NCBI GenBank assembly: GCA_028820635.1
Contig: JAPPIG010000064.1
Coordinates: 195,074 to 259,073 of the forward strand
Reading direction: 5' to 3'
DNA: 64,000 bases
DNA from: Candidatus Poribacteria bacterium
GTDB taxonomy: Bacteria > Poribacteria > WGA-4E > WGA-3G
Made by a program: the position numbers and the translations under genes. Positions within the stretch are counted from its first letter, which is position 1. Each line of letters begins with the position of its first letter. The notes beneath the pieces are model-generated. The model was given only the letters and a program-made list of their open reading frames with translations, had not been told where the DNA came from and did not search any database. Positions 2,166 to 43,334 of this stretch are shown here, piece after piece.

Positions 2166-2206
2166 ATGAGAAAATGAATAGGGACAGCTTCTACGCTGTC
2201 CCTATA
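2166..2206 (-). terminator. rho-independent terminator downstream of the minus-strand LamG paralog
   Basis: Perfect 11-bp stem ATAGGGACAGC / GCTGTCCCTAT with loop ttctac (2178-2205). On the minus strand it is followed by the U-rich run UCAUUUUCUC. Confidence 0.6.
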
Positions 2207-2222
2207 TTGTATGGATATGGGA

Positions 2223-3008
2223 TTAGTCACGACGCGTTTTCATTTTTCCCCACGTAGTGGTAAGTTTTTCCTGTGGTTCAACAGGAAGTAGATCGCCCTC
2301 CATTACACTTGCAATCTCTTTTTCATCAAGAGCTCTATCGTAAACGTATAGTTCGTCAATGTAGAAGGTAGCTGCTCTGTATCCTGTTTTACCAATATAG
2401 AGTTGTTCAGCACCCTGAGCATGTTTTGCAGGAACAGGGTATTCTTGGAGTTTTTCGCCATCAACGTAAAACGTCAATGTTCCGTCTTCTTTAATACCTG
2501 CAACATGATACCATTTTTTAGTTTCAAACAGGGTGTTTTCTCCATCAGGACCAGCACAACCGGTGCCTTGGTTGCCCGGATTGAACCGCCAGTGTATATT
2601 CAGGGAATTTGGGCAAATCCATATACCAGGGGAACGATCAGAACCCGGTGCTTTTTTGGCAATGATTTGGCTCCAAGCACCATTATGAGCTTCAATGAAG
2701 TTGATCCAGAACAGATAACTATTGTCCTGATAATCTACCAATTCTTTGAAAGATTGAACTTGGACATCAGCATTTGCATCTCTGATTTCCAATGCGCCTT
2801 TACCGAACTTTTTTTCACCGGTTGTTATTTCTGCCTTATTGATTATTTCAGCGTCATTCCCGCCACCAGTTTTATCCTCAATCTTACCACCATTCTCATT
2901 ATCAAAACTGAAGTAGAGGATTAAACCGTCATCTTTAACAGCAGCTTGGACAGTTAGAAGTCCTACAAAAAATAGGAGTGTAGCGAACAGATGTGTCGTA
3001 AGTTTCAT
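2223..3008 (-). CDS. secreted LamG-domain (concanavalin A-like lectin/glucanase, Laminin_G_3-type) protein, paralog 1
   Basis: Signal peptide MKLTTHLFATLLFFVGLLTVQA, LILYFSFD motif, conserved C-terminal tail PVEPQEKLTTTWGKMKTRRD. RBS AAGGAGGG lies 8 nt upstream of the ATG. Confidence 0.8.
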   Translation of the reverse strand: MKLTTHLFATLLFFVGLLTVQAAVKDDGLILYFSFDNENGGKIEDKTGGGNDAEIINKAEITTGEKKFGKGALEIRDANADVQVQSFKELVDYQDNSYLFWINFIEAHNGAWSQIIAKKAPGSDRSPGIWICPNSLNIHWRFNPGNQGTGCAGPDGENTLFETKKWYHVAGIKEDGTLTFYVDGEKLQEYPVPAKHAQGAEQLYIGKTGYRAATFYIDELYVYDRALDEKEIASVMEGDLLPVEPQEKLTTTWGKMKTRRD

Positions 3009-3394
3009 TGTGAATCCCTCCTTGGGTATACAAGTTGGTTAATATTAGATGCGAGTATGTTTATTTTTCAAACCACATACTATTTTCAAATCTATTTCTC
3101 AAATACTATAGTGAAATCTATTCTACAAAAAACGATTAAATTTGTCAAGAAAAATCGAATATAATTCCCAGAGTTGTTATGTCAAGACAGTAGATTTTCA
3201 TGAAGCCGTATTGCGAGGAATGCACATCATAAACAAAATAGGGTTGGTTTTAGGTGTAATCTCTGGTTTTCACCTTCCCACTGAAACAAGCTGAAGTATT
3301 GAAAAATGGAAGATTCTATTCCAAGGTACATTCCTTAAGATTGAATGCATAAATTGAGGATTGTGTTATTAAATAAAAATAATGCAATTTTAAC

Positions 3395-3423
3395 TTGACA
3401 GATTTATACGTTTTTTGTAGAAT
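3395..3423 (+). promoter_or_regulatory. candidate sigma70 promoter for LamG paralog 2
   Basis: TTGACA at 3395-3400, 17-nt spacer, TAGAAT at 3418-3423, about 170 bp upstream of the ATG. Confidence 0.35.
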
Positions 3424-3594
3424 ATTAATATAATTACGTAATTATTACGAAAAGTTTGTTTTCAAGTTATCTCTCCCAAAAGATGTTGTTTAACTTACGA
3501 ACATTATACAATCCAAAGTGGGATGGCATAAACAAGGCTTTTCGCATCAAACAAGACCAAATAGTTTATTGAATACATGAGGAGGAATTTACTC

Positions 3595-4377
3595 ATGCGT
3601 TTTACGATTTATGTGTTTATTGCGGTAATGTTTTTCGCTGGTGGCGTTCTCACTACTCAGGCTGCGTTAGACGACGGTTTAATTCTTTACTTCAGTTTTG
3701 ACAAAGAAGTAGATGGCACCATTACTGATGGCACCCTTGGAGGCAATAACGGTACGCTGACAAATGCAAGTGTTACAACAGATGAAAAGAAAGTTGGCGC
3801 AGGATCTTTGGAAATGTTAGATCAGAATGCCAGTTTGGAAGTTGAATCTTTTTCAGAAATGGAAGAGTATCAGGACAATAGTTTTGTGTTCTGGCTGCAC
3901 TTCATTCAGGCTCATAACGGTGCGTGGAGCCAAATCTTCGCCAAGAAAGCGCCTGGTTCTGATCGTTCCCCTGGAGTATGGATTTGCCCCAATTCCTTGA
4001 ATATCCACTATCGATTCAATCCTGGGAACCAAGGTAGCGGTTGTGCTGGTCCTGGTGGAGAAAACGAACTGTTTGAAACAGGTAAATGGTACCATATCGC
4101 TGGAGTCAAAGCGGGTGGCAAATTCCATTTTTATATTGATGGTGTCCAAGTTGGTGAATATGACGTTCCCGCAGAACACGCTCAAGGTGAAGAGAAACTG
4201 TATATTGGAAAGACAGGATATAGATCCGCGACCTTCTACATTGATGACTTTTTTGTTTTCAACCGAGGACTCTCTAAAGACGAGGTTAACGATATAATGG
4301 GTGGTTTACTCATTTCTGTTGAACCTCGTGATAAGTTGACAACAACTTGGGGACATCTGAAAACAAAGCGGAATTAA
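3595..4377 (+). CDS. secreted LamG-domain protein, paralog 2
   Basis: The ORF-track start at 3577 lies inside the RBS GGAGGA (3581-86). The likely start is the ATG at 3595, giving signal peptide MRFTIYVFIAVMFFAGGVLTTQA. LILYFSFD motif; C-terminal tail SVEPRDKLTTTWGHLKTKRN. Confidence 0.8.
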   Translation: MRFTIYVFIAVMFFAGGVLTTQAALDDGLILYFSFDKEVDGTITDGTLGGNNGTLTNASVTTDEKKVGAGSLEMLDQNASLEVESFSEMEEYQDNSFVFWLHFIQAHNGAWSQIFAKKAPGSDRSPGVWICPNSLNIHYRFNPGNQGSGCAGPGGENELFETGKWYHIAGVKAGGKFHFYIDGVQVGEYDVPAEHAQGEEKLYIGKTGYRSATFYIDDFFVFNRGLSKDEVNDIMGGLLISVEPRDKLTTTWGHLKTKRN

Positions 4378-4407
4378 CACTTAACCGTCACACATAAACA
4401 ACAAAGA

Positions 4408-4446
4408 ACATGGGGAAATTTCTTGAAATTTCCCCATGTTTTCTTA
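4408..4446 (+). terminator. rho-independent terminator after LamG paralog 2
   Basis: Perfect 15-bp stem ACATGGGGAAATTTC / GAAATTTCCCCATGT with loop TTG, followed by TTTCTT. Confidence 0.7.
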
Positions 4447-4470
4447 AACACTCTCATTCAGGTTCAGTGC

Positions 4471-5796
4471 ATGTTAACCTACCGTCTACTTATGTGCTTT
4501 TGCTTGGCACTATGTTTTCAGTGGTGGACAGCATCGGGATGGAGCGATACCGATGTTGAGCTTAATAATCCGTTTGCGCTTGGACTCCATTATATGGAGA
4601 TGGAACAGTATGATAAGGCGTTAGCAGCGTTTAACGTTATCCGCAAGCAAGAACCGAGTAGTGGTATCTATTGTTATATCGGTATGGTGCTTCAAGAACA
4701 AAATAGACTAAGTGAAGCATTAGAAGCGTACCAGAACGCTTTAACATTTAAAGCCCCTCCGCAAATACACGGCAGTGCCCACCTCCATTTAGGAATCGTT
4801 TATAAAGCACAAGGCAAATTACGTCCTGCAGAAACCCATCTGAAAGAGGCACTTGCGCTTACTCCTGAAACTCCAGAAGCACATATCCATCTTGGAGAGG
4901 TATACCTCCTCCAACGTCGATTGGATAAGGCAGAACGTGCCTATCGCCAGAGTATCCGTCTGAACCCAAATTTTACCCAGTCCTATTATGGGTTAGGTAG
5001 AGTCGCAGAAATGCAGAATGATTTCACCTCTGCTGTTGATGGCTACCTTCAAGCCATTAAGCAAAACCCTTACGACCCACAACCTCACTACCGACTAGCG
5101 ATGGCTTATCGTTGTTTACAAAAACAGGAAGCAGCAGAAAAGGCGATGGCACAATTTGAACGGATGAAAAGTTACTCAGACAATGTTCATCGGTTTCGCG
5201 AAACGATTTACAAGAATCCCAACACTCCGATTTTGTATGTAAAGTTAGGGGAACTTCACGAAAAATTCGACAATGTTGCTGACGCGCAACGCGTATATCA
5301 AACTGCAATTACATTACATCCCACCTTTTTGCCTGCCTACCATAGCCTTGGCACAGTGTTGATTCGTCAACGGGCCTTAGAAAAGGCTACCGCAGTATAT
5401 CTTAAAATAACGGAAATTAAACCCAGCGATGTTCAAGCGTGGTTAAAGTTAGGTGTGATATATATTAATCGTCAGCAATTTGAACCAGCAATTAAGGCAT
5501 TCAAACAAGCTATTACTGCCGACGACACATCCGCAGAGGCATATAACAATTTAGCCCGCGTTTACGCCGGACTCGGTACAGAAACAAAGCAAGCAATTAT
5601 ACTTGCGGAAAAGGCGGTTGCTTTGTCTCCAATACCGAAACATTACGACACACTTGCTTACACCTATTTCCGTGATGAGCAGTACCCAGAGGCATTAGTT
5701 GCTATCAATCGTGCTGTCACCCTTGCTCCGGGTGAAGCAGCTTATGGAAGTTTTCGCACAAAAATACAAGAGAAAATGAAAGAAAATAAAAAGTGA
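4471..5796 (+). CDS. TPR-repeat protein (secreted or periplasmic)
   Basis: Multiple 34-aa TPR units (A..Y..A.....P pattern) throughout. The ORF-track start at 4423 is the loop TTG of the terminator hairpin. The first ATG downstream, 4471, gives a hydrophobic N-terminus MLTYRLLMCFCLALCF. Confidence 0.7.
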   Translation: MLTYRLLMCFCLALCFQWWTASGWSDTDVELNNPFALGLHYMEMEQYDKALAAFNVIRKQEPSSGIYCYIGMVLQEQNRLSEALEAYQNALTFKAPPQIHGSAHLHLGIVYKAQGKLRPAETHLKEALALTPETPEAHIHLGEVYLLQRRLDKAERAYRQSIRLNPNFTQSYYGLGRVAEMQNDFTSAVDGYLQAIKQNPYDPQPHYRLAMAYRCLQKQEAAEKAMAQFERMKSYSDNVHRFRETIYKNPNTPILYVKLGELHEKFDNVADAQRVYQTAITLHPTFLPAYHSLGTVLIRQRALEKATAVYLKITEIKPSDVQAWLKLGVIYINRQQFEPAIKAFKQAITADDTSAEAYNNLARVYAGLGTETKQAIILAEKAVALSPIPKHYDTLAYTYFRDEQYPEALVAINRAVTLAPGEAAYGSFRTKIQEKMKENKK

Positions 5797-25788: not shown

Positions 25789-27273
25789 TTGAAACATCCA
25801 AACTTGGGCTGCTTGTCGGCAAAACAGATAACTGTTTTTGGTGCGAATCGAAGTGGCATAGCAATTGCACGGTTACTTCATGACCGTGGTGCGAATATCT
25901 CCCTTACAGATTCACGTGATGTAGAAGCATTGTCTACCGAAATTACGCAATTGAAAGACATACCGATTGAATACTATCTCGGAGGCCATAGCGAATCTTG
26001 TATTGCTAATGCTGAATTGATAGTTGTTTCACCCGGGGTGCCTTTAGAAATTCCGATTTTGGTTGAGGCAAAAAAAAGAAATATTCCAATTTTAGGCGAA
26101 TTGGAAGTCTCTGCAAGCCTTTGTCAAGCACCTATCGTCGCAATTACGGGCACAAAAGGAAAATCTACAACAACGCTTTTGACTGCGGCAATTTTAGAAG
26201 CAGATGACATATTTTCCAATGTGATAGTGGCAGGAAATATAGGCGTTCCGTTAGCAAGTAAAGTAGCGACATTAACCTATAAGGATGTCGTTGCCTTAGA
26301 GGCAAGTAGTTTCCAATTGGAGAGTACCGTTACTTTCCGACCAGCAGTGAGTGTGGTCCTGAATTTTTCACGTGACCATCTTGATCGCCATGGAACGATG
26401 GAATCGTATTTGAATGCGAAAAAAAAGATATGTGCAAATCAGACGAGTTCGGAATGGATAGTGGTAAATGCTGCTGATACAACTGCTAAGAATTTCAAGC
26501 ATGCCACCGCAGCGAAAAAAGCATTTTTCACAGATCACCTCTCAAATACAGATGAAGAATGGAAAAAAATATGTCGCAAAATGGGTGGTGGAATTGGAGC
26601 ATGTCTGCGAAGCAATGCAAACAACATTGGAATCTATACCTATAAAGATAATCAAGAACACTGGGTTTGTAATGTCGCTGATTTGCCGTTAGAAGGAGCA
26701 CATAATGTCAGAAACGTCCTTGCATCAATAGTTGTAGGGACAATCTTCGGTATAACACCTGCGGATATGGGTAAGGCTATTCGAGAATTTGATCGGATAC
26801 ACCCTGCTCTTGAACACGCTTTTGAAAAGGTTAGCGTTATCAAAGGTGTAGATTATATAAACGATTCTAAAGCAACAAACGTCATAGCAACATGCGCTGC
26901 CCTTGAGTCAATTGAAAAAACAACCGATCTTGGTGGAGATGTAAAACGCGTTTTCTTAATCATAGGAGGATATGATAAGGGAAACGATTACAAACCGCTA
27001 ATTGAACTTGTCCGTACTAAAGTTAAAAATTTAGTTCTACTTGGGGAATACACACAAAACATTGAAAAAACATTCAGCGGTTGTGTCAATATGCATCATA
27101 CTGCAACAATGGCAGAGGCAGTTGAATATGCGTACACACATGCTACACCAGGAGACATCGTCCTTTTATCACCCGCAAACGCGAGTTTTGATATGTACAC
27201 TGATTATAAGGAACGCGGGCAGGTGTTTAAAAACGCAGTGAATTCACTTGAGACTTATCAGTCGCTTGATTAA
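25789..27273 (+). CDS. murD: UDP-MurNAc-L-Ala:D-Glu ligase
   Basis: N-terminal Rossmann motif ITVFGANRSGIA; Mur ligase P-loop GTKGKSTT. Confidence 0.85.
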   Translation: MKHPNLGCLSAKQITVFGANRSGIAIARLLHDRGANISLTDSRDVEALSTEITQLKDIPIEYYLGGHSESCIANAELIVVSPGVPLEIPILVEAKKRNIPILGELEVSASLCQAPIVAITGTKGKSTTTLLTAAILEADDIFSNVIVAGNIGVPLASKVATLTYKDVVALEASSFQLESTVTFRPAVSVVLNFSRDHLDRHGTMESYLNAKKKICANQTSSEWIVVNAADTTAKNFKHATAAKKAFFTDHLSNTDEEWKKICRKMGGGIGACLRSNANNIGIYTYKDNQEHWVCNVADLPLEGAHNVRNVLASIVVGTIFGITPADMGKAIREFDRIHPALEHAFEKVSVIKGVDYINDSKATNVIATCAALESIEKTTDLGGDVKRVFLIIGGYDKGNDYKPLIELVRTKVKNLVLLGEYTQNIEKTFSGCVNMHHTATMAEAVEYAYTHATPGDIVLLSPANASFDMYTDYKERGQVFKNAVNSLETYQSLD

Positions 27274-27318
27274 GAAATTTACTTGATTCAAAGTTTAATT
27301 GAGATACACTGACAACTT

Positions 27319-28518
27319 ATGCAAAATTATAACACCCTCAATTATGCGAATCCAACTACTCTTCCTTCTGATAGAGAGCAACCCCAAATTGCGGGTCTTG
27401 GCAGAATAGACATCGCTCTGCTTGTTGTGACGCTCTTCTTGGTTGGAATAGGTATCGTGATGGTTTTTAGTGCTGGACATGTATTATCTGAAAAACAGTA
27501 CGGGAACAGTTACCATTACCTGAAAATCCAAGCAATTGCCTGTATGATAGGTTTGATTGGGATGGGTATTGCCTCGTATATCCCATATCGGTTTTATGAA
27601 AAGTATAGTAACATATTGTTGTTCTTGGCTTTTGGTTTGCTGATCTTGGTTTTTACGCCTATAGGTACCAGTGTGCAAGGGGCGGAAGGTGGCAGATTTA
27701 ACCGATGGATCGCCTTAGCAGGTGTCCAATTCCAACCTGTGGAATTTGCAAAGATCGCCATACTCATTCATACAGCACATTTCTTGGCGCGAAAGCCAGA
27801 ACGTATTAAAAGTTTCTTTCATGGAGTACTACCAAACATCTTAATCATAGGATTAATGTTCGGATTAGTGGCAATGCAGCCTGATTTCGGTTCAGCTGTA
27901 CTATTAGCAGCTACAGCAGGATGCCTCCTGTTTGTTGGCGGTATTCGCTTGTCCCATACATTTATATTAGTAGCAGTTGGAGGTGTATTATTAGCTGGAT
28001 TTATTATCAATGATCCGTACCGATTAACTCGCTTAACAGATTACTGGGCATCCTTACAATCTCCGGAAGCCACAAGTTTTCAGTTGGGACGTTCATTTGA
28101 GGCACTTAAATGGGGCGGTTTATTTGGAGTCGGCATTGTTGACAGCGTTGCTAAAATAAATTATTTGCCTTACCCGCACACAGATTTTATTTTTGCAGTA
28201 CTGGGTGAAGAGTTCGGATTTAGGGGCACAGCAGCGGTGACACTCATTTTTATGATATTTATTTGGCGTGGAATTTCAATCGCAAGACGTACAGAAAACC
28301 GATTTGGGGCACTATTTGCAACCGGACTTACGATAATCATCGGGCTTCAAGCATTCATCAATATCGGCGTTGTAACGGGACTACTTCCTACAAAGGGCAT
28401 CACTCTTCCTTTTCTCAGTTATGGTGGTTCATCTCTGGTAATCAGTCTGGTAAGTGTCGGCATGCTTTTGAATATTTCTCGAACTGCTACACGGTCATCT
28501 CCAAAAACAGCAAAATAA
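27319..28518 (+). CDS. ftsW: SEDS-family peptidoglycan polymerase FtsW
   Basis: 10-TM FtsW/RodA family, with the conserved QPSE-like region (QPDFGSAVLL) and the C-terminal PFLSYGGSS motif. Confidence 0.85.
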   Translation: MQNYNTLNYANPTTLPSDREQPQIAGLGRIDIALLVVTLFLVGIGIVMVFSAGHVLSEKQYGNSYHYLKIQAIACMIGLIGMGIASYIPYRFYEKYSNILLFLAFGLLILVFTPIGTSVQGAEGGRFNRWIALAGVQFQPVEFAKIAILIHTAHFLARKPERIKSFFHGVLPNILIIGLMFGLVAMQPDFGSAVLLAATAGCLLFVGGIRLSHTFILVAVGGVLLAGFIINDPYRLTRLTDYWASLQSPEATSFQLGRSFEALKWGGLFGVGIVDSVAKINYLPYPHTDFIFAVLGEEFGFRGTAAVTLIFMIFIWRGISIARRTENRFGALFATGLTIIIGLQAFINIGVVTGLLPTKGITLPFLSYGGSSLVISLVSVGMLLNISRTATRSSPKTAK

Positions 28519-28524
28519 GTTAAT

Positions 28525-29730
28525 GTGAAAAAGCAAAAAACGCGACATAAAAGGCAAGACGTTGCCAGCAAAAATACTAATCATAAAAAAAACGATAAAC
28601 GATTTGTCCTTGCCGGAGGTGGAACAGGCGGACATATCTATCCTGCCATTGGGATTGCCCAGGCCCTTCAACGCCTAAATCCAGAGGTAGACATAGTTTT
28701 TATCGGTGGGCGAGACCGCTTAGAATCAACGCTTGTTCCGCAACACGGTTTTCGGTTTCTACCCATTTCTGTTGAAGGATTTCCACGCAGCTTGACGTGG
28801 AAATGGTTTCCAGTTATCATAAAAGTCTGTCGTGGACTTGTACAATCGTTGAAATATCTTAGACAATTCCAGCCAAGTGTCGTTATTGGAACAGGTGGAT
28901 ATGTCTCTGGACCTGTTCTCTTTGCTGCTTCGCTTCTGGGTATCCCGATAGCGATACAGGAACAAAATGTGTCTCCCGGTTTAACAAATAGCATGCTGGC
29001 GCGTCGTGCCAAAGCAGCGTACCTCGCGTTACCACCAGATACTCAACGGTTTCCTAATCACATTGTGGAGATAACTGGTAATCCGATTCGAATCGGAATA
29101 ACGGATTATCCGCGTAATAACGAAACTTATCGAAAATTTAAATTATGTGAAGATCGCAAAACGGTATTCGTAATGGGAGGGAGTCAAGGTGCCCGTGCTA
29201 TTAATAAAGTGATGATAGAAGCGTGTCCATTAATTGCTAAATTTGCTGCATCTCTAATGTTGGAAACAGGTAGCACCAGCATGGGTAACCTCCAAATTGT
29301 ACATCAAACAGGAAAAACGGATGCGGAGCAAGTACAAACAGCCTATGCAGAACATGGAATAGCACATCATGTTCAACCATTCTTCGATCCTGTGGAAGAA
29401 ATATATAGTATCGCTGATGTAATGATTTGCAGAGCAGGTGGAATGACGGTATCTGAAGTTACCGCATGTGGTATTCCAGCAATTTTTATACCGCTACCTG
29501 CTGCCGTAGGTAATAACCAAGTTCGCAATGCTGAAACAGTGGCTAATGCAGGTGCTGCTGTCGTTCTTGAACAGGAAGAAGTAACACCTGAGGCACTTGT
29601 GAAAGAATTAATTCAAATAATTACAGATGAAAGTTCCTATCAACAAATGAAAACGGCAAGCCAGGATCTTGGTCGTCCGTATGCAAGTGATACGATTGCC
29701 GAATCAATTTTTAGGCTTGCATCTCCTTAA
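28525..29730 (+). CDS. murG: UDP-GlcNAc:lipid I GlcNAc transferase
   Basis: GGGTGGHIYPA G-loop and GT28 C-terminal domain. The ORF has a ~27-aa Lys/Arg-rich N-terminal extension, so the true start may be internal. Confidence 0.85.
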   Translation: MKKQKTRHKRQDVASKNTNHKKNDKRFVLAGGGTGGHIYPAIGIAQALQRLNPEVDIVFIGGRDRLESTLVPQHGFRFLPISVEGFPRSLTWKWFPVIIKVCRGLVQSLKYLRQFQPSVVIGTGGYVSGPVLFAASLLGIPIAIQEQNVSPGLTNSMLARRAKAAYLALPPDTQRFPNHIVEITGNPIRIGITDYPRNNETYRKFKLCEDRKTVFVMGGSQGARAINKVMIEACPLIAKFAASLMLETGSTSMGNLQIVHQTGKTDAEQVQTAYAEHGIAHHVQPFFDPVEEIYSIADVMICRAGGMTVSEVTACGIPAIFIPLPAAVGNNQVRNAETVANAGAAVVLEQEEVTPEALVKELIQIITDESSYQQMKTASQDLGRPYASDTIAESIFRLASP

Positions 29731-29791
29731 AAACATAAAAGAAATAAACAGTATTGCTAATTTAATTTTAGTATTGTACTGGAGATTAGCA

Positions 29792-31162
29792 TTGTTTGGA
29801 AAGACACAACACATTCATATAATAGGTATCGGTGGAGCTGGGTTGAGTGGAATCGCTGAAGTTCTTCTTGATCTCGATTTTGATGTCACGGGTTCGGACA
29901 TTGTAAAATCAACAACTACGGAACATCTTAAGGCATGTGGTGCCAAAATCTGGTATGGTCATGCATCCTCCCAAGTTAACGGAGCAGACGTAGTGGTCAT
30001 GTCACCAGCTATTCCGGAGGACAACCCAGAATTACAAGCTGCAATGCTTGCCAAAATACCGATTATTCGTGGAGCTGAAATGTTGAATGAGATAACACGA
30101 ATGCGGTATAGCGTTGCTGTCAGTGGTACTCATGGAAAAACAACAACAACTGCAATGACAGCGGCTGTGTTAGCCACACTCGACCCAACGGTCGTTGTTG
30201 GTGGCAAATTAGTCAATGGAAGTAACGCACGGAGTGGACACGGCGATGTGATGGTAATTGAAGCAGATGAGGCGTACGGGTCAATTGAAATGTTCTACCC
30301 TACTATCGCTGTTGTCACATCTGTTGATGCGGATCACCTTGACTACTACAATAACGTAGAAGAAATCGGTAAAACCTTTCTAACATTTATCAACAAAGTT
30401 CCGTTTTATGGTTCAGCCGTGTTGTGTCTCGACCAAGAAAACATCCAAAAGCTTATTCCACAAGTAGAGAAAAAATTTGTGACATACGGTCTCGAAACGA
30501 GAGCAGACCTGATTGCCGAAGAAATTAAGATTGACGGACCGACTTCACATTATCAAGTTCGTATGAACGATGAAGTTTACGGTAATGTACATCTTAAAAT
30601 GCCCGGACGGCATAATATTGCAAACTCCTTAGCTGCAATCGCAGTAGGACTTGAATTAGAGATTCCTTTTGAAAAAATCCAGGGCGCGCTTGAATCTTTT
30701 CAAGGTGTGCATCGTCGATTTGAAGTGTTAGGAACTGTAGATAATATAGTCGTTGTTGACGACTATGCACATAACCCCGCAAAACTTATGGCAGCACTCC
30801 GAGGTGCAAGAGAAGGTTATAATAGACGAATTGTGGCTGTTTTTCAACCACATCGATACGGACGCGTACGAGATCTCGCAGATGAGTTTAGCAGATCATT
30901 TTATCAAGCAGATGTCCTGATTGTTACGTCAATCTACGGGGCAGGCGAAGAACCGATAGAAAATGTAACAGGGGAAAACTTAGCTCGTGCAATAGAAGCA
31001 CACGGACATACACATGTAATTTATGAATCTGATATGGATGAAGCAGTTGAACGTCTGATGCAAATTACGCGACCTAATGATTTAGTCATCACGCTCGGGG
31101 CAGGCGATGTAGTGAATGTAGGACACAAATTTTTAAGCAAACGTGCATCGGAAATACGCTAA
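29792..31162 (+). CDS. murC: UDP-MurNAc:L-Ala ligase
   Basis: HIHIIGIGGAGLSGIAEVL and GTHGKTTTT. The ORF-track start at 29669 overlaps murG. An in-frame TTG at 29792 with GGAG 7 nt upstream gives a canonical MurC N-terminus. Confidence 0.8.
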   Translation: MFGKTQHIHIIGIGGAGLSGIAEVLLDLDFDVTGSDIVKSTTTEHLKACGAKIWYGHASSQVNGADVVVMSPAIPEDNPELQAAMLAKIPIIRGAEMLNEITRMRYSVAVSGTHGKTTTTAMTAAVLATLDPTVVVGGKLVNGSNARSGHGDVMVIEADEAYGSIEMFYPTIAVVTSVDADHLDYYNNVEEIGKTFLTFINKVPFYGSAVLCLDQENIQKLIPQVEKKFVTYGLETRADLIAEEIKIDGPTSHYQVRMNDEVYGNVHLKMPGRHNIANSLAAIAVGLELEIPFEKIQGALESFQGVHRRFEVLGTVDNIVVVDDYAHNPAKLMAALRGAREGYNRRIVAVFQPHRYGRVRDLADEFSRSFYQADVLIVTSIYGAGEEPIENVTGENLARAIEAHGHTHVIYESDMDEAVERLMQITRPNDLVITLGAGDVVNVGHKFLSKRASEIR

Positions 31163-32126
31163 AATGTTAATGAAACTTGAAAGAAAACGTAGACGGAGAA
31201 AAGATGGTCCATCTCACCGAATTTTTAAACCGATACGGAGCCGTGCACCAAAATACCGCGCTCGACGGATGTTCATATTGGGAACTTTCATCGTAACTTT
31301 ATTGTTTTTAGCGAAAATACTTCTCGGATTTTTCGATTTTGAACACGTACAAGTGTCCGTAGCACTTTTCGGTAATTCGCATTATACGGAAGGGGAAATT
31401 TACAATGTATTAGGCGAAAACCTTGATAATATCGTCACAGATTCCGAAGCACAAACTGTTGCATATCTAAAGGAAAATCTGAGTTACATTAAGGATGCTT
31501 ACGTTTCGAGAAGTTTTGTAAAACGGCAATTGACGATTGAAATTACTGAGCGTCAACCGTTTGCACGGGTAAAACATCTCTTTTTGAAAGAATCGAAATC
31601 AAAAAAAGAGTCTCAAAAAACAACAGGAAGGAAAAGCACGGATGAATTTTTTTTGATAGATGGTGCAGGTTATGTGTTAGAATCTATTACACCAGAAAAA
31701 TATCACCACATGACAATCGTTCTGGATGAAGGGATACAGGAGCCTGAAGTTGGTAAACAGATTAAAACTGACACAACTCAACTTGGGATTCACATTCTGA
31801 AGTTAGCGAAATTAAAAGAACCTGAACTGGCAAAATACCTCAAAACCATTGATGCGCGAGTTCCGCAGAAAATTAAAATTAACGTAGAGAGTTTGCCGAT
31901 GTCAGTGTGGATTGCCGCAGATTTGATTGAAACCGGACTTCACAATGTTGGGTTGTTTGTCCAACAACGAGGACTCCTTATCCTTCAGAGAGAAAGACAA
32001 ATGGAAAAGGTAAAGACATTGACAAAAACACGTGTAGGCAAAAAGGATTTCCTCTTGCCAGAAAATTTTACGTATTTGGATGTACGATATGAAGATACAC
32101 TTTATTTAGGAGGTGAAGGCAAATAG
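31143..32126 (+). CDS. ftsQ: cell division protein FtsQ/DivIB (POTRA domain)
   Basis: Basic cytoplasmic N-terminus, one TM, then a POTRA-like segment VQVSVALFGNSHYTEGEI...IEITERQPFARV. Confidence 0.7.
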   Translation: MHRKYAKMLMKLERKRRRRKDGPSHRIFKPIRSRAPKYRARRMFILGTFIVTLLFLAKILLGFFDFEHVQVSVALFGNSHYTEGEIYNVLGENLDNIVTDSEAQTVAYLKENLSYIKDAYVSRSFVKRQLTIEITERQPFARVKHLFLKESKSKKESQKTTGRKSTDEFFLIDGAGYVLESITPEKYHHMTIVLDEGIQEPEVGKQIKTDTTQLGIHILKLAKLKEPELAKYLKTIDARVPQKIKINVESLPMSVWIAADLIETGLHNVGLFVQQRGLLILQRERQMEKVKTLTKTRVGKKDFLLPENFTYLDVRYEDTLYLGGEGK

Positions 32127-33362
32127 ATGGCAAAAGGAACCATTATTACTGGATTAGATATCGGCTCAAGTAAGATCTCGGTTGTAGCATGCCACACCTT
32201 ACCGAGTCTGGATGGCCAGATGGAGATTATTGGTGTCGGCAGTGCTGAATCAAAGGGCTTACGAAGAGGTGTCGTCGTTGACATCAATCTCACTGCAGAA
32301 GCAATTCGTGAGGCAATTTCCGAAGCAGAACTCATGGCAGGTGTAAACATCGAGTCGGTATGTTTAAACGTTTCAGGTGAGCATGTTGTTGGACAAACGT
32401 CACGCGGTGTGGTAACTGTAAAAAATGCTGCACAAATCACAAAGGATGATGTAGATCGGGCAATGCAGTCGGCAAGAACAATTGCTGCTATCCCTGAGGG
32501 GCATGACATTCTGCACGTGCTTGAGCAAAACTTTGTTATTGACATGGACATGCGGACCAAGGAACCGATTGGAATGTCAGGGTCGCGTTTAGAAGCAAAT
32601 GCGTATATAATTACTGGAAACACAAGTGGAATTCAAAGTCTGTTAAACAGCGTTGAAAGTGCAGAAATTCCAAGTGTGGAAACACTTGCTGTCGCCCCAG
32701 TCGCATCAGCAAAATCTGTTCTCCAGAGAGACGAACGGGAAGTCGGAATCACACTTGTAGATATCGGAGACCAAACCACAGAAATCATTGTCTACAAAGA
32801 AGATGCTATTGAACATGTAGTTGTATTTCCTGTAGGTGGACAACATGTAACAAACGACATCGCCCAATATTTAAAAGTGACGTTACCTATGGCGGAAGAA
32901 CTGAAACTTCACCGAGGATGCGCATGGACAGAGTGGGTACAAGAAGATGATACTAACCCTATCCCGATTACTACAGGTTCAGCGCCGCCTAAGTTTATCA
33001 GCCGTTTAGAATTAGCACAAATCATTGAATATCGAATGGTACAGATTCTTGAAGGAATAGCTAACGAACTCGGAGATATGCAACTTCCCGGTGGACTTGT
33101 GTTAACGGGAGGAACAGCACTCATGGATGGTTTGGCAGAACTCGCTGAACAAATCCTGCAACTCCGTGTACAAATAGGATATCCTATAGAACTAAAGGGA
33201 TTGACAGACAGGATAAATTATCCAATGTATGCCACGAGTCTTGGATTAGCAATGTACGGAGAATCTTTGCGGCGTGAAGAAAAACAGGTACAAGCATTGA
33301 GACGAGGTTCAAGTCCAATTGGTGGATTTTTCCGTCGTATAAAGGAATGGTTCGGCTATTAG
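32127..33362 (+). CDS. ftsA: cell division protein FtsA
   Basis: Actin-like ATPase: IITGLDIGSSKISVVA, VLTGGTALMDGL. Confidence 0.9.
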   Translation: MAKGTIITGLDIGSSKISVVACHTLPSLDGQMEIIGVGSAESKGLRRGVVVDINLTAEAIREAISEAELMAGVNIESVCLNVSGEHVVGQTSRGVVTVKNAAQITKDDVDRAMQSARTIAAIPEGHDILHVLEQNFVIDMDMRTKEPIGMSGSRLEANAYIITGNTSGIQSLLNSVESAEIPSVETLAVAPVASAKSVLQRDEREVGITLVDIGDQTTEIIVYKEDAIEHVVVFPVGGQHVTNDIAQYLKVTLPMAEELKLHRGCAWTEWVQEDDTNPIPITTGSAPPKFISRLELAQIIEYRMVQILEGIANELGDMQLPGGLVLTGGTALMDGLAELAEQILQLRVQIGYPIELKGLTDRINYPMYATSLGLAMYGESLRREEKQVQALRRGSSPIGGFFRRIKEWFGY

Positions 33363-33527
33363 GCTGTAAAAATCTATTACGATAATTTGCTTTTTATATT
33401 TCGGAATAACGGTAAGAAACAAAGTGTTTCGCAATATACAAGCCTGGATAGCAAGATTTAAATCGTGAGAACCCAGTCAAGACTCAAAGAAAATTTAATA
33501 TATACACCCTTTTTATCATTCATTATA

Positions 33528-33556
33528 TTGATTTAATTCTAAATTATTTGTATAAT
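33528..33556 (+). promoter_or_regulatory. candidate sigma70 promoter in the ftsA-ftsZ spacer
   Basis: TTGATT at 33528-33, 17-nt spacer, TATAAT at 33551-56. About 400 nt upstream of ftsZ, which implies a long leader. Confidence 0.35.
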
Positions 33557-33953
33557 AAAATAATATAATTACTAATTGATGAATAAAGCACGGAAGGAAG
33601 TATATACCTTTGTTTATTGAAGGTAAGTTAAAATATTTTAACAACGAGATAGGAAAGTTGCAATCTCACTTTTAGCGTGTGGTTGCTTGAGTGACGCGCT
33701 GTGTGTAGAATTCATTATCGGGACGTATTGACACCGAAGGGAGTTCGGTGGAGTCAAGATTCGTGTAAAAAGATATTGGTAAACTACACGAGTGTAAATT
33801 ACACACTGAAATAGTGTTTTCAGCATGAAGTGCTTATACAGAAGGAGGAATTAGGTTGCCGTTGGTTAGACAACGTTCCACAAAATGAAACGTAAGTTAT
33901 AATGCTGCGGAGGCACCGAAGGATGTGTTGTCCACAGGTGACTGAAATAAAAA

Positions 33954-35285
33954 ATGATAGATTTTGAACAAGAAGAATTTGAAAAAGCGAATGCGAAAAT
34001 AAAGGTTATCGGGGTAGGTGGAGCAGGCGGAAACGCTGTCAGACGGATGATCGAAGCAGCACTTACCGGCATAGAGTTTTATGCCGTTAATACCGACGCG
34101 CAAGCACTTAGTGCATGCCATGGTGCCACACCAATTCAGATTGGAATGAATATAACTAATGGGTTAGGGGCAGGAGCCAATCCCGAGGTAGGTAAAGAGG
34201 CGGCTCAGGAAGACCGTGAGTGTTTACAAGAAATAGTTGATTCTGCCAACATGGTTTTTGTCGCTGCCGGAATGGGTGGCGGCACAGGCACAGGCGCAGC
34301 ACCAATTATCGCAGGTCTTGCGAAGGAAAAGGGTGCTTTAACAGTTGGGGTAGTCACGCGACCATTTGATTTTGAAGGAAAACATCGCGCAGAAAAAGCT
34401 GAAATAGGGTTGAAAGATCTCAGAGACAGCGCGGATTCAGTCATCGTAGTTCCTAACCAACGTTTGATTGACACCATAGATAGAAAACTACCGATCCCTG
34501 AAGCATTTAAGAAGGGTGATGAGATCCTGTTACATGCTGTTCAGAGTATCTCCGATATTATAACCGAAACAGGTGAAATTAATGTTGATTTTGCCGATGT
34601 GGAAACAGTTATGCGAGATGCAGGAACAGCCTTGATGGGAATGGGCAGCGCAGTAGGAGATAATCGGGCTCAAGTCGCAGCATCAGAAGCTATCTCCTCA
34701 CCTCTACTCGAAGAAACCAGCATAGCAGGTGCTGTTGGGATGATTGTTAATATCACCTCTCCCCCAAATTTTACGATGCACGAATTGGGTGAAACCATGA
34801 AAGTCATCACAGATGTATGTGAAGATGCACAACCGATATTTGGTTTAGTTTACAAGGAGGAATTGGAACTTAGCGATGAGGTGTTGGTCACTGTAATTGC
34901 TACAGGCTTTGATCCGCCGACAGATGCAGATTATGTTCCAAACCAAGGTGGCAGATTCCACCCACAAGGTACACAACCTAATCCGATGTTGCAAGGTAGT
35001 CGCGTCCGAAATACTGAGGCAGGCACTGCAGGGCGGCCTCAACAGACTACGCAGCGTCCAGCTTGGAACAGGCAGCCACAAGGGAGAGGGAACGAGGGAA
35101 CAACTGGTTCCGCTACTCAAGTTCCCGCGAATCGCCAAAATACCTCGCCTCAGCCTGTAGGACAAGAAAAACCGGAAAATAATGATGATGAAACCAATGA
35201 TGAACAAAATCAAGACCGTGAAAAACAGTGGGACATCCCCGCATTTCTCCGGGTTCAACAGAAAAGGGACAAACGTAGAAATTAA
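33954..35285 (+). CDS. ftsZ: cell division GTPase FtsZ with long Q/P/G/T-rich C-terminal linker
   Basis: GVGGAGGNAV and GGGTGTGAAP tubulin signature. About 120-aa disordered linker before the C-terminal DIPAFLR peptide. Confidence 0.95.
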   Translation: MIDFEQEEFEKANAKIKVIGVGGAGGNAVRRMIEAALTGIEFYAVNTDAQALSACHGATPIQIGMNITNGLGAGANPEVGKEAAQEDRECLQEIVDSANMVFVAAGMGGGTGTGAAPIIAGLAKEKGALTVGVVTRPFDFEGKHRAEKAEIGLKDLRDSADSVIVVPNQRLIDTIDRKLPIPEAFKKGDEILLHAVQSISDIITETGEINVDFADVETVMRDAGTALMGMGSAVGDNRAQVAASEAISSPLLEETSIAGAVGMIVNITSPPNFTMHELGETMKVITDVCEDAQPIFGLVYKEELELSDEVLVTVIATGFDPPTDADYVPNQGGRFHPQGTQPNPMLQGSRVRNTEAGTAGRPQQTTQRPAWNRQPQGRGNEGTTGSATQVPANRQNTSPQPVGQEKPENNDDETNDEQNQDREKQWDIPAFLRVQQKRDKRRN

Positions 35286-35339
35286 TTCTATAATATCCTT
35301 ATCTGATTCTATATATGCTTATACTTAAGAGGAATTGAA

Positions 35340-37082
35340 TTGGATTTACGCGAGCATACGCAGCAGCTACTAAAAACCGAAAAGTACGCGTTGCCAAGTC
35401 AAAACAAACGGACTCGGTTCAGGAAGCCAAATAGATTTGCCTTAGTTTATCCAAGCACGTATGAACTTGGTATGTCCAGTTTGGGCGTTCAGGTTATCCA
35501 TGCTACGCTAAACAGTCGTAAAGATACTGCGTGTGAACGCGTCTTTATACCAGAACCTCAATATGTCCGCGAACTGATAAAGAAGAAGATACCTCTCTTC
35601 TCGTTAGAGACGCAAACCGCACTTCACGCGTTTGATATCGTCGGATTTTCTGTCTCATTTGAATCTGACTATGTCAATATCCCACGTACTTTGGAATTAG
35701 GCAACATACCGCCCCTGGCTGAAGAACGCTCAGAATGGGATCCGCTTGTTGTTGCGGGTGGAATTAATATCTCTTATAATCCAGAACCGTTGGCTGATTT
35801 CATTGATGTCTTTGTAGTAGGTGAGGCTGAATTGATTATCCATCAACTGATGGATAAATTCCACGAATGGAAGATGTCAAACGCTCCCAAAGCAGATCTA
35901 TTAAAATCACTTGGTGCAGAACCGGGACTGTATGTGCCAAGTTTTTACGATGTCACATACCATGCCGATGGGAAGGTTCAACAGGTTAATCCGAAGCAAG
36001 GGATGCCTGAGAAAATTCGTTCCGCAGCAGTCCCCGACCTAAATAGTGTAGAAACTTGCACGCAGATTCATACCCCTAACACTGAGTTTTCAAATGCACA
36101 TTTAATTGAAATTGTCCGGGGATGTGGTAGACAGTGTCGCTTCTGTGTGGCAGATTACGCAAGGCGATGGCCGAGACACCGATCCGTCCAAAATACACTT
36201 GCACTGGCAGAAAAAGCAAGAGGGATTACGGATAGGATTGGATTAGTAGGGGCATCCATCTCCGACCATCCGCAGATTAATGAGATCGCTACAGGTTTAG
36301 TTGATAGAGGATTCCGTATCTCGTGTGCGTCGCTCCGCGCTGAAACTGTTGAAGCGCCACTCCTTGACGCGCTTGCTGACAGTGATCAAGGCACAATTAC
36401 AATCGCTCCCGAAGTGGCAACCGAGGAACTTCAAAAGGTTGTAAATAAAGCAATTCCCCGCGAACGACTCTACTATGTTTTTGAAGAGGCATTGAAACGT
36501 GATATTCTTAACCTCCGCCTATATTTTCTTATTGGTGTCCCTCAGGAAACACCTGCAGATGTTACAGCAATTGCAGAAATGGCAAAAGAGATGCGAACAA
36601 TTCTGCTTCCACATGCCAAACGGACAGGAAAAATAGGACGTATCAGTTTTACGATTTCACCAATGGTACCAAAGCCACATACTCCGTTTCAATGGGTAGC
36701 AATGGAACCACCAAAGACTATCGCCAAGAAACTTGACTATCTGAAACGAGAGATTAACAGTCTTGGCAGTATAAAGGTATCGTCTGCAAGTGCACGGATG
36801 GCACATCAAGAAGCTGTTTTTGCACGCGGTGATCGCCGTCTCGGCAAAGTTATATTGGAACTTTCCCAAGGAACATCGTGGAATAACGCTTTCCGAAAAC
36901 ACGGATTATCTCCTGATTTTTACGCACTGCGTCAACGTGAATTTAACGAAGTTAACCCATGGGATCACCTTGACCTTAACGTTAAACCTCAATTTTTACA
37001 ACTTGAATTCAATAAGCACGAAAAAGGTTTTATGACCAGCGAATGTGACACCACAGTTTGTAAGAAATGTGGTGCTTGCTAA
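35340..37082 (+). CDS. B12-binding-domain / radical SAM family protein
   Basis: TTG start with RBS AAGAGGA. CGRQCRFC (Cx3Cx2C) radical-SAM cluster motif, plus a C-terminal extra Cys cluster CDTTVCKKCGAC. Confidence 0.75.
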   Translation: MDLREHTQQLLKTEKYALPSQNKRTRFRKPNRFALVYPSTYELGMSSLGVQVIHATLNSRKDTACERVFIPEPQYVRELIKKKIPLFSLETQTALHAFDIVGFSVSFESDYVNIPRTLELGNIPPLAEERSEWDPLVVAGGINISYNPEPLADFIDVFVVGEAELIIHQLMDKFHEWKMSNAPKADLLKSLGAEPGLYVPSFYDVTYHADGKVQQVNPKQGMPEKIRSAAVPDLNSVETCTQIHTPNTEFSNAHLIEIVRGCGRQCRFCVADYARRWPRHRSVQNTLALAEKARGITDRIGLVGASISDHPQINEIATGLVDRGFRISCASLRAETVEAPLLDALADSDQGTITIAPEVATEELQKVVNKAIPRERLYYVFEEALKRDILNLRLYFLIGVPQETPADVTAIAEMAKEMRTILLPHAKRTGKIGRISFTISPMVPKPHTPFQWVAMEPPKTIAKKLDYLKREINSLGSIKVSSASARMAHQEAVFARGDRRLGKVILELSQGTSWNNAFRKHGLSPDFYALRQREFNEVNPWDHLDLNVKPQFLQLEFNKHEKGFMTSECDTTVCKKCGAC

Positions 37083-37163: not shown

Positions 37164-37940
37164 GTGCGCAAATTTCTACAATTTACAACGGGACTCGCTG
37201 CAATATTGATGCTGTTTATTATCGTCTCACCATCGTATGCGGGTTTGGACGATAAATCGCTCGTATTATACCTTTCCTTTGATGAAGGCAAGGGGGGCAC
37301 TGCCAAAGATAGCTCTGAATATGGACATGATGGCGAACTTATCAAAGATCCTACATGGGTTGATGGACAATTTGGTGGCAAGGCACTTGAGTTTGATGGT
37401 ACAAAAGGACAATATGTTATGGTACCTATTAACGATACTTTACAGCTAAGAGAACAGTTTACCATAGCATTTTGGGTCAAACGTGGAAATCAACAAATTC
37501 GGGCATGGAACTATATGGTTTCTGCTGGTTCACTTGTCTGGGCAACTATTTTTAATAACGATAATAAAAAAACTTATCTCTATTCCAAAGATCCAGGTTG
37601 GTCTCCAGAAGCTATTTCTGATGTAGAGCAACCTGAAGATTGGGTACATATTACTGTAACACATGATCCTAAATCTGAGTCTGCAATTTACTATGATGGT
37701 GATAAAGTCGGATCTGATAATAACCCGGCCCAAATCATTGAGATTGACGGTTCTATTATGGTTGGGGCAAGGCACCCTGGTCAGGAATTTTTTACTGGTA
37801 TAATTGATGAGGTGCATCTCTTTAATAGAGTCATTACCGAAGACGAGATGAGTACAATTATTAATGGTGAATTTACACCGGTAGAACCTGCGGAGAAATT
37901 GGCTACAACGTGGGGTGTCATTAAAATGGAACGCCACTGA
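37164..37940 (+). CDS. secreted LamG-domain protein, paralog 3
   Basis: GTG start after AAGGAGG. Signal peptide ...LMLFIIVSPSYA, LVLYLSFDEGKGG motif, C-terminal tail PVEPAEKLATTWGVIKMERH. Confidence 0.8.
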   Translation: MRKFLQFTTGLAAILMLFIIVSPSYAGLDDKSLVLYLSFDEGKGGTAKDSSEYGHDGELIKDPTWVDGQFGGKALEFDGTKGQYVMVPINDTLQLREQFTIAFWVKRGNQQIRAWNYMVSAGSLVWATIFNNDNKKTYLYSKDPGWSPEAISDVEQPEDWVHITVTHDPKSESAIYYDGDKVGSDNNPAQIIEIDGSIMVGARHPGQEFFTGIIDEVHLFNRVITEDEMSTIINGEFTPVEPAEKLATTWGVIKMERH

Positions 37941-37951
37941 TAGGTTAGGTA

Positions 37952-37990
37952 AAATAGGGCAGAGAGTACTCTCTGCCCTATTTTAGTTAA
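37952..37990 (+). terminator. rho-independent terminator after LamG paralog 3
   Basis: Perfect 15-bp stem AAATAGGGCAGAGAG / CTCTGCCCTATTT with loop tact, then TTTTAG. Confidence 0.75.
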
Positions 37991-38135: not shown

Positions 38136-38201
38136 GTCGCGATTCGGAGATCGCTCCTACAGAAGTCTTGTGTATTGTAGGAGGGAACTCCGATTCCCGA
38201 C
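38136..38201. repeat. palindromic intergenic repeat element, copy 1 (arms A-spacer-B)
   Basis: GTCGCGATTCGGAGATCGCTCCTACAG ...13 nt... TGTAGGAGGGAACTCCGATTCCCGAC. The arms are imperfect reverse complements. The spurious ORF 38047..38235 (..RFGDRSYRSLVYCRRELRFPT..) is a translation of it. Confidence 0.7.
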
Positions 38202-43252: not shown

Positions 43253-43334
43253 GATTTTGAAATCGGGCTTTCAAAGCCCTCCAACTATTTATGATAGGTT
43301 GTACATAAATGTTCATACGGAAGTAAAATTTAAC

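Follow-up and report, generated by a model that had tools for sequence, protein, structure and literature searches.

In a 64-kb stretch of the Candidatus Poribacteria contig JAPPIG010000064.1 (hereafter the window; GC content 41.9%), three genes for secreted proteins with a laminin G-like (LamG) domain end in almost the same peptide, and the question raised by this locus is what that C-terminal tail does. We consider it probable, at roughly 0.6, that the tail is a Poribacteria-specific, portable C-terminal tag that lacks a transmembrane (TM) segment and targets or anchors Sec-exported, mostly lectin-like proteins. This function is a proposal that draws on the analogy to known sorting tags and on the capture of the tail by phages. 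A sequence-only reading of the window had cautiously suggested a functional tag for sorting, anchoring or partner binding, and that suggestion stood, since the tail proved to be modular, C-terminal and present on bodies other than LamG.

Three LamG paralogs in the window share a C-terminal tail

Paralog 1 is encoded on the minus strand (2223-3008, 261 aa) while paralog 2 (3577-4377) and the divergent paralog 3 (37164-37940, 258 aa, GTG start) are encoded on the plus strand. The open reading frames (ORFs) were confirmed, and all three proteins matched Laminin_G_3 (PF13385) above the gathering score of 27.6, with 69.6, 60.1 and 77.1 bits and E-values of 4.2e-19, 3.5e-16 and 2.1e-21 for paralogs 1, 2 and 3, respectively. 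NCBIfam returned a single weak match in the LamG region of the three proteins and no name otherwise. The expectation that the bodies had diverged while the tail was kept was borne out. In the body, paralog 1 is 64% identical to paralog 2 and 28% identical to paralog 3, while the last 20 residues (PVEPQEKLTTTWGKMKTRRD, SVEPRDKLTTTWGHLKTKRN and PVEPAEKLATTWGVIKMERH in paralogs 1, 2 and 3) are nearly the same and follow the common pattern VEPxxKL[TA]TTWGxxKxxR. The segments that code for these residues and the stop codon (2223-2285 on the minus strand, 4315-4377 and 37878-37940 on the plus strand) are only 60-67% identical at the DNA level, indicating that the shared tail is due neither to recent duplication nor to gene conversion. 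A six-frame scan of the 64-kb window found the tail on no ORF beyond these three.

Direct reading of the translations identified a type I signal peptide without a lipobox Cys in each paralog, with predicted cleavage at VQA/AV, TQA/AL and SYA/GL in paralogs 1, 2 and 3, respectively. In paralog 1 the signal peptide is MKLTTHLFATLLFFVGLLTVQA, followed by AVKDDG (2943-3008, minus strand). Shine-Dalgarno sequences were found 7 nt upstream of paralog 1 (AGGAGGG), 9-10 nt upstream of the ATG at 3595 in paralog 2 (AGGAGG, within GAGGAGG) and upstream of paralog 3 (AAGGAGG). Because of the AGGAGG before 3595, and because the homologues P0036 and P0047 begin with MRFTIY, we prefer 3595, the start given in the sequence-only reading, over 3577 as the likely real start of paralog 2; the protein then has 260 aa instead of 266 aa.

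Paralog 1 is 100% identical to an NCBI entry named 'LamG domain-containing protein [Candidatus Poribacteria bacterium]' and has 379 detectable homologues. The best 120 of these 379 were all ~260 aa long and 58-100% identical, and nearly all of the 120 carried the tail LLPVEPxDKL[AST]TTWGx[LMIV]KxRRD. Paralog 3 was present on Poribacteria contigs of 0.29 and 5.24 Mb.

The tail is strictly C-terminal and almost restricted to Poribacteria

The family search by tail motif that had been suggested for this locus was run as a DNA scan. We scanned one genome per species (185,579 species, 596 Gb) for sequences coding for K-L-[AT]-T-T-W-G-x-x-K and assigned taxa by record title. The scan yielded at least 120 stretches with 143 matches; of the 120 stretches listed, 109 were titled Poribacteria, from sponge, coral and deep-ocean metagenome-assembled genomes, and 7 'uncultured bacterium'. 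Since about 70 occurrences of the pattern are expected by chance over the whole 596-Gb collection (hand calculation), the dominance of Poribacteria is overwhelming. Two stretches on short contigs belong to bins labelled Pseudomonadota or Deltaproteobacteria and carry real tails. These tails, in L044 (Pseudomonadota, RHO2_bin_21) and L115 (Deltaproteobacteria), are C-terminal, lie on short or low-coverage contigs and most likely come from mis-binned Poribacteria DNA, because RHO2_bin_20 of the same study is Poribacteria. Among the matches listed, only two, in Muribaculaceae and Synechococcus, were internal, and both look like chance.

In the other 141 of the 143 listed matches, the stop codon comes 4-15 residues (mode 6) after the end of the motif. 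Positions that the search pattern left unconstrained were kept as well, with Val at -5 in 137/141 and [AP], [ED], [PA] and L/I/V at -6, -4, -3 and +8, respectively. The resulting consensus is [LTF]-[AP]-V-[ED]-[PA]-x-x-K-L-[AT]-T-T-W-G-x-[LI]-K, after which come 2-5 residues, most of them basic or polar, and the free C-terminus. Its invariant signature residues are V(-5), K, L, T, T, W, G and K. The tail occurs in multiple copies: three in the 64-kb window, tandem arrays of 3-4 in the loci L050, L102 and L112 and, among the matches listed, several blocks each from the chromosomes OY761015.1, OZ246958.1 and OY762722.1.

A tail-only profile (A6) was built from the hits of a duplicated-tail profile, which were proteins of < 80 aa (fragments and mis-called ORFs) with diverse upstream sequences. 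Among 1.84e9 (1.84 billion) representatives, the tail-only profile identified 852 clusters (50% identity) at E <= 1e-3. Its matches nearly always end within 6 aa of the C-terminus, and the few that do not appear to be artefacts of read-through or frameshifts. Almost all cluster members that failed the strict pattern carried variant tails (KVATTWG, KLATTWA, KLATIWG, MWGWLKQ), so that the strict pattern undercounts. One locus, L106 (uncultured bacterium SRP200020_co5_420), has both kinds. Three of its minus-strand ORFs (1424-2710, 2458-3513 and 3510-4511) encode tandem PD40/WD40-like propellers with the variant tail ...HRALMWGWLKQLGAGG, and its Kelch proteins have the canonical ending ...KLTTTWGAMKRR. 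This co-occurrence suggests that the core of the tag may be only [T/M]-W-G-x-L-K. Two very short predicted proteins, P0146 (55 aa; MTHRQILTYLFMLAIIPLSATAF...LAVEPHEKLTTTWGQLKQ) and P0191, contain little beyond a signal peptide and the tail; they may be remnants of decayed genes, or carriers that are naturally minimal.

The tail is a module independent of the body that carries it

We analyzed the bodies of 112 full-length tail proteins by Pfam scans, with longer proteins scanned separately. Laminin_G_3 accounted for 66 of the 112, CBM9 and discoidin F5/8C for 6 each and 3-keto-disaccharide hydrolase (DUF1080) for 5. The remaining types included ankyrin proteins with or without a reprolysin-like region, DUF3108-like proteins and Kelch and PD40 propellers, and many bodies had no Pfam match. 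Carriers of 968-1681 aa contained He_PIG immunoglobulin (Ig) repeats together with lamin-tail domains (LTD). Aligned columns were 67% identical in the tail versus 19% in the body, and BLAST clustering resolved the tail proteins into many separate clusters.

By a hydropathy criterion, 107 of 113 full-length carriers had an N-terminal hydrophobic signal, and the other six look like over-extended or mis-called starts. The carriers are thus predicted from their N-termini to be exported and not to be lipoproteins; a lipoprotein reading was rejected as a lipobox-like string was found in only 4/113.

For each of the invariant residues K, L, T, T and G, all synonymous codons occurred among the 141 instances. 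This excludes a DNA or RNA element as well as gene conversion, and places the selection on the peptide. The structure prediction that had been proposed as a check agreed with a separate tail: in two AlphaFold2 (AF2) models the body was confident and the tail had a low predicted local distance difference test score (pLDDT). The model of paralog 1, made from an 88-sequence alignment, had a mean pLDDT of 87.6, with a confident jelly-roll (> 90) up to about residue 238 and values of 40-52 for residues 241-261. In paralog 3 the confident fold ends at about residue 233 and the tail residues 240-258 were below 50. The low tail values beyond the confident body indicate that the tail is an exposed appendage outside the LamG fold; the low-confidence helix that AF2 draws for the tail is not to be trusted. 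The top PDB matches of the body in Foldseek were the LamG-like lectin domains of botulinum/tetanus neurotoxin Hc, NTNH and trypanosome trans-sialidase (E ~1e-10, TM-score ~0.6).

These results bear on a simple explanation in which the tail is the terminal element of one LamG subfamily, owes its uniformity to gene conversion or recent duplication, or reflects a DNA or RNA element lying over gene ends. The explanation draws on the fact that all three window genes encode LamG proteins and that a hairpin terminator follows closely after each tail. The possibility that the tail is the last LamG strand failed, however, because the tail lies outside the AF2 fold, occurs on many non-LamG bodies and is found in one phylum. 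Recent duplication failed on body identities of 64% down to 28%, on tail-coding DNA that is 60-67% identical and on scrambled synonymous sites. Fold, bodies, identity and codon usage have already refuted this explanation, and we assign it practically no probability.

Comparison of the tail with known C-terminal signals

No Pfam or NCBIfam model matched the tail (NCBIfam was run with the three proteins at E <= 0.1 and with isolated tails at E <= 10). The claim that the tail does not match PEP-CTERM, LPXTG, GlyGly-CTERM or type IX secretion system (T9SS) signals was therefore upheld, the NCBIfam sorting models being negative even at E <= 10. The only PDB match of the tail was an 11-residue segment, HVSPKGKLATT, at residues 6-16 of 8dj2_A ('Adhesin'), and its E-value of 0.59 is compatible with chance. 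We found no published description of the tail in the literature on Poribacteria LamG, CRTAC1 or T9SS or on TTWG. The tail is apparently undescribed, and it differs from known sorting signals in a defining respect, the lack of a TM segment.

Seven attributes of small tripartite C-terminal sorting domains have been published (Haft, bioRxiv 10.1101/2023.06.07.544157). The tail has five of the seven, namely a C-terminal position, multiple copies per genome, an invariant signature, signal peptides on its carriers and carriers that are otherwise unrelated. Like LPXTG/sortase, PEP-CTERM/exosortase, GlyGly-CTERM/rhombosortase, MYXO-CTERM/myxosortase and PGF-CTERM/archaeosortase signals, it is a near-invariant motif at the extreme C-terminus with many copies per genome, is lineage-restricted and sits on unrelated carriers with signal peptides. 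Its 'V-E-P' superficially recalls the PEP of PEP-CTERM. On the other hand, the TTWG tag is only ~20 aa in all, has 2-5 residues past the motif, no TM helix and no general Arg cluster, and no intramembrane protease or sortase candidate was seen in the tail neighbourhoods. A further attribute, a terminal cluster of 2-5 basic residues, is matched in part by a slightly basic end: the net charge after WG was +1 to +3 in 101/113 carriers and R/K were enriched at +11/+12, but no Arg cluster was consistent, and the KTRRD ending was confined to the paralog-1 family. Judged on these features, the tag cannot be filed with the LPXTG, PEP-CTERM, GlyGly-CTERM or MYXO-CTERM type.

The C-terminal domains (CTDs) of T9SS substrates, type A (TIGR04183) and type B (TIGR04131), resemble the tail in being C-terminal signals without a TM segment on Sec-exported, often lectin- or adhesin-like proteins of diderm bacteria. 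They differ in being folded beta-sandwiches of ~70-100 aa, whereas the TTWG tail is an unstructured peptide of ~20 aa. A T9SS CTD was rejected since neither TIGR04183 nor TIGR04131 matched and the pLDDT of the tail was < 52. Both kinds of signal occur in the same genome, on different proteins. Directly after paralog 3 lies a gene (38249-42538, plus strand) for a 1429-aa protein with internalin-like leucine-rich repeats, a cohesin domain, a dockerin and a FlgD_ig/T9SS type A CTD; it scored 29.2 bits against TIGR04183 (cut-off 23) and served as the positive control for the T9SS test. T9SS-type CTDs have been reported in Poribacteria that lack T9SS structural genes (Kamke et al. 2014, PMC3909097). 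By that report, the CTD of the 1429-aa protein is an orphan signal, and the TTWG tail is a second orphan C-terminal signal of Poribacteria beside it.

The orphan CTD also bears on whether the tail is a recognition site for processing or modification, in which proteolytic removal, transpeptidation to a glycan or lipid (as by PorU in T9SS), O-glycosylation of Thr or a Lys-Trp cross-link would give the function. A contiguous invariant heptapeptide near the C-terminus is typical of protease and transpeptidase sites such as LPXTG (by Haft's attributes), and T9SS-type CTDs without known T9SS genes (PMC3909097; TIGR04183 in the 1429-aa protein) make an unknown C-terminal processing pathway plausible. 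Against it, no peptidase, glycosyltransferase or radical-SAM maturase recurred beside the tail genes in 118 loci (see below). The radical-SAM gene upstream of paralog 3 (35340-37082), a candidate for forming a Lys-Trp cross-link, was rejected, because it is a TIGR03960-family gene that trails the murD-ftsW-murG-murC-ftsA-ftsZ cluster and is thus unrelated to the tail. We consider a processing site improbable.

The eukaryotic PTS1 -SKL signal read by the TPR domain of Pex5, KDEL and the cargo peptides of encapsulins and microcompartments share with the tail that they are short, exposed and portable, fixed to a free C-terminus and found on unrelated clients. As in such receptor-read peptides, many clients would presumably be served by one reader. 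Unlike those signals, which act in the cytosol or the endoplasmic reticulum or on cytoplasmic cargo, the TTWG tail is on clients with Sec signal peptides, so that recognition of the tag must take place in the envelope; the Sec-type export signals rule out an encapsulin or microcompartment cargo peptide. The dockerin-cohesin system likewise joins many binding and catalytic modules through one small C-terminal docking element, but dockerins are Ca-binding duplicated helices of ~60-70 aa and the tail has no such features. Cohesin and dockerin domains do exist in the source genome, in the 1429-aa neighbour of paralog 3. An outer-membrane protein beta-signal was rejected because a C-terminal F, Y or W was present in only 17/113, with R, Q, N and K dominating.

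The tail could also be a self-sufficient in-plane anchor to membrane or lipopolysaccharide that needs no dedicated machinery. It would be short and amphipathic, with Trp and Lys, much like the C-terminal membrane-targeting helices of MinD and FtsA. AF2 draws the tail as a low-confidence helix, the consensus places L, W and L/I at i, i+4 and i+7, the charge after WG is mostly positive as given above, and Trp and Lys typically lie at interfaces. However, no conformation can be supported at this AF2 confidence, the hydrophobic face would comprise three residues only, and Thr-rich, Gly-containing segments are poor helix formers. Generic amphipathic anchors keep a pattern but not an exact sequence, while T, T, W, G and the Val at -5 are almost invariant throughout the phylum. 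The seven contiguous near-invariant residues would lie on both faces of any extended conformation, which favours a specific protein reader over generic membrane affinity. We therefore give a self-sufficient anchor little chance.

Phages have captured the tail

We scanned IMG/VR with the same DNA pattern and found six stretches, four of which had true C-terminal tails. L207, L212 and, partially, L208 are phage contigs with a GC content of 31-36%, and PHROGs identified a T4-like replication module (family-B DNA polymerase, clamp loader, UvsX-like recombinase and DnaB-like helicase). The gene for the tail-bearing protein lies downstream of the replication module (L207, 12770-13696, plus strand; L212, 5498-6421, plus strand; partial in L208). 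Its product of ~308 aa begins with a hydrophobic signal or anchor, contains a Laminin_G_3 domain and ends in ...VEPKLKLTTTWGEVKK. The phage LamG body shared ~23% identity with paralog 3, the two phage copies were 73% identical to each other, and the GC content of the gene equals that of the phage. An exported phage protein with the exact tail argues for a reader in the host envelope. Phages may thus make use of the host tag, and the tail on phage contigs is a possible marker for host assignment.

A proposed role for the tail and the points that weigh against it

We propose that the tail would be the TM-less analogue of bacterial C-terminal sorting and anchoring signals. The clients, mostly single-domain lectin-like modules, would be exported by Sec with cleavage of their type I signal peptides and would not become lipoproteins. 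In the cell envelope, a conserved Poribacteria-specific factor would then recognise the exposed, flexible tail as a linear peptide and would retain the clients at the cell surface or deliver them to it. A receptor, a translocon component or a processing enzyme might act as the reader, and the present data do not separate sorting, non-covalent docking and processing. A more tentative extension, which we regard as possible although the odds are somewhat against it, is that the TTWG tail is the address label of a new TM-less envelope sorting or secretion pathway, maybe the route taken by the T9SS-like CTD proteins, that defines the surface and secreted lectin repertoire of Poribacteria; by capturing the label, phages would have gained a way to bring a LamG protein of their own onto or into the envelope of the host.

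Several observations weigh against a targeting or anchoring tag. The TM segment that follows the motif among Haft's attributes is absent: the maximum 15-aa Kyte-Doolittle mean over the last 30 aa had a median of 0.31 and a maximum of 1.47, versus 2.46 for N-termini. Without a TM segment, cleavage of the membrane-tethered sortase, exosortase, rhombosortase or myxosortase type cannot apply. When 853 ORFs from 118 eight-kb tail loci were clustered, no peptidase or sortase-like neighbour recurred, and these neighbourhoods held no candidate for a cognate processing enzyme. The sizes of the clients are unusually uniform, mostly 215-300 aa, which also fits the docking module of a multi-protein assembly. 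The host phylum is uncultivated and its assignment here is that of the record titles. The only enriched neighbour, described next, comes with two reservations.

That neighbour, a secreted CRTAC1-like protein, combines an FG-GAP_3 propeller with an UnbV_ASPIC domain. In the tail-selected loci, 14 of 15 CRTAC1-like genes adjoin a tail gene versus 6.9 expected from within-locus shuffles; the adjacent tail genes were on the same strand in 14/15 and belonged to five tail-body clusters. The recurrent, operon-like order is usually a TPR gene, the CRTAC1-like gene and then, on the strand of the latter, 1-4 tail genes of different body families (L021, L055, L067, L088, L092, L094, L099, L111, L112, L120 and L203). 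The enrichment comes largely from orthologous copies of about five locus types, which are not independent. Among five CRTAC1 loci sampled independently of tails (the window, P0442, P0413, P0390 and P0398), only one has an adjacent tail gene; it is P0442, a CRTAC1 paralogue after which a tail-bearing CBM9 protein is encoded. When metagenomes were scanned for CRTAC1 relatives, most of the loci obtained were non-Poribacteria, with a GC content of 55-73%, and tails were present in only 2/80. We treat the CRTAC1-like partner as a lead and not as a result. Neighbouring TPR, GFO/IDH, PhyH and extracytoplasmic function (ECF) sigma factor genes were at expectation, and a TPR neighbour was rejected as the receptor since its adjacency was at chance (4/11 observed versus 4.2 expected). 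The cohesin-bearing 1429-aa protein was rejected as a docking partner because no homologue of it recurred in the 118 tail loci.

The same neighbourhoods could point to a partner-docking peptide. Lectin-like modules would be plugged non-covalently, by a miniature dockerin-cohesin logic, onto a common secreted or surface scaffold, for which the CRTAC1-like FG-GAP/ASPIC proteins with TPR partners, often directly upstream, are the leading candidate. The near-invariance of KL[AT]TTWG on both faces suggests groove binding or strand addition, and the clients are mostly single binding modules in the 215-300-aa range. The adjacency of CRTAC1-like genes to five tail-body clusters and the arrangement at P0442 agree with docking, as does the TPR gene of the same cluster that follows paralog 2 in the window. 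However, many of the adjacent cases are orthologous copies, four of the five independent CRTAC1 loci have no adjacent tail gene, TPR adjacency is at chance level, and the three window genes are monocistronic with none beside a CRTAC1 gene. We consider docking onto such a scaffold doubtful, though less so than a processing site or a self-sufficient anchor, and favour a targeting or anchoring tag.

If true, a targeting or anchoring tag would extend the known bacterial C-terminal sorting signals by a type that has no TM segment and would imply an undiscovered reader or machinery; what reads the tag is now a concrete, testable question. With a hidden Markov model of the tail, hundreds of exported proteins of the lectin-like, ankyrin, Kelch and Ig kinds could be picked out at once; they are probably the interface of Poribacteria with sponge and coral hosts or marine particles. 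Localisation is hard to measure in this uncultivated phylum. The tail is also a near-diagnostic marker of Poribacteria contigs and, given its presence on phage contigs, might help to link phages with hosts among the Poribacteria. Should the tentative envelope-pathway extension be correct, the tag would set the lectin repertoire of a dominant sponge-symbiont phylum.

Terminators, intergenic region and flanking genes

The three window genes are monocistronic, and the hairpin terminators noted after each of them were located. The intrinsic-terminator hairpin of paralog 1 (2178-2205, minus strand) has a stem of 11 pairs, 6 of them GC, and a T-rich tail after it. That of paralog 2, AACATGGGGAAATTT-cttg-AAATTTCCCCATGTT (4407-4440, plus strand), has a 15-pair stem that was scored on the minus strand, with TTTTCTT after it on the plus strand. 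The hairpin of paralog 3, AAAATAGGGCAGAGAGT/ACTCTCTGCCCTATTTT (37945-37990, plus strand), is the inverted repeat I2, with 23-nt arms that are 91% complementary and a 0-nt loop; it was missing from the terminator scan because its loop is < 3 nt, and it is visible as an inverted repeat.

Paralogs 1 and 2 are arranged head-to-head across a 568-bp AT-rich intergenic region (3009-3576), as had been described; its GC content is 30.1% versus 41.9% for the window, and its length is 586 bp if paralog 2 starts at 3595. It holds three promoter-like sites (3185-3158 and 3148-3120 on the minus strand, 3395-3423 on the plus strand), each with 11 of 12 consensus positions, and they are promoters by consensus match only.

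Directly downstream of paralog 2 is an ORF for an exported TPR protein (4423-5796, plus strand), which belongs to the TPR cluster c4 that recurs beside CRTAC1-like and tail genes and is given here as context. Its mechanical TTG start at 4423 sits within the terminator hairpin of paralog 2, and the true start is probably the ATG near 4471 (MLTYRLLMCFCLALCF..., signal-like). A second TPR gene (43257-44648, plus strand) is paired with the CRTAC1-like FG-GAP/UnbV_ASPIC gene of the window (44645-46345, plus strand), which serves as context and lead only. The gene that follows this pair (43257-46345) encodes PhyH and is not a tail gene.

Paralog 3 lies directly after a complete dcw-type cell-division cluster (25789-37082) that comprises murD, ftsW, murG, murC, an unnamed 320-aa gene, ftsA and ftsZ and then the TIGR03960-family B12-binding radical SAM gene. 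This arrangement shows that Poribacteria have a canonical FtsZ divisome locus. A related genome encodes a 1734-aa version of the 1429-aa protein that follows paralog 3. In the 308-bp spacer upstream of the 1429-aa gene, an imperfect inverted repeat (38136-38201) with 26-nt arms that are 85% complementary and a 14-nt spacer could be a regulatory hairpin or a repeat element.

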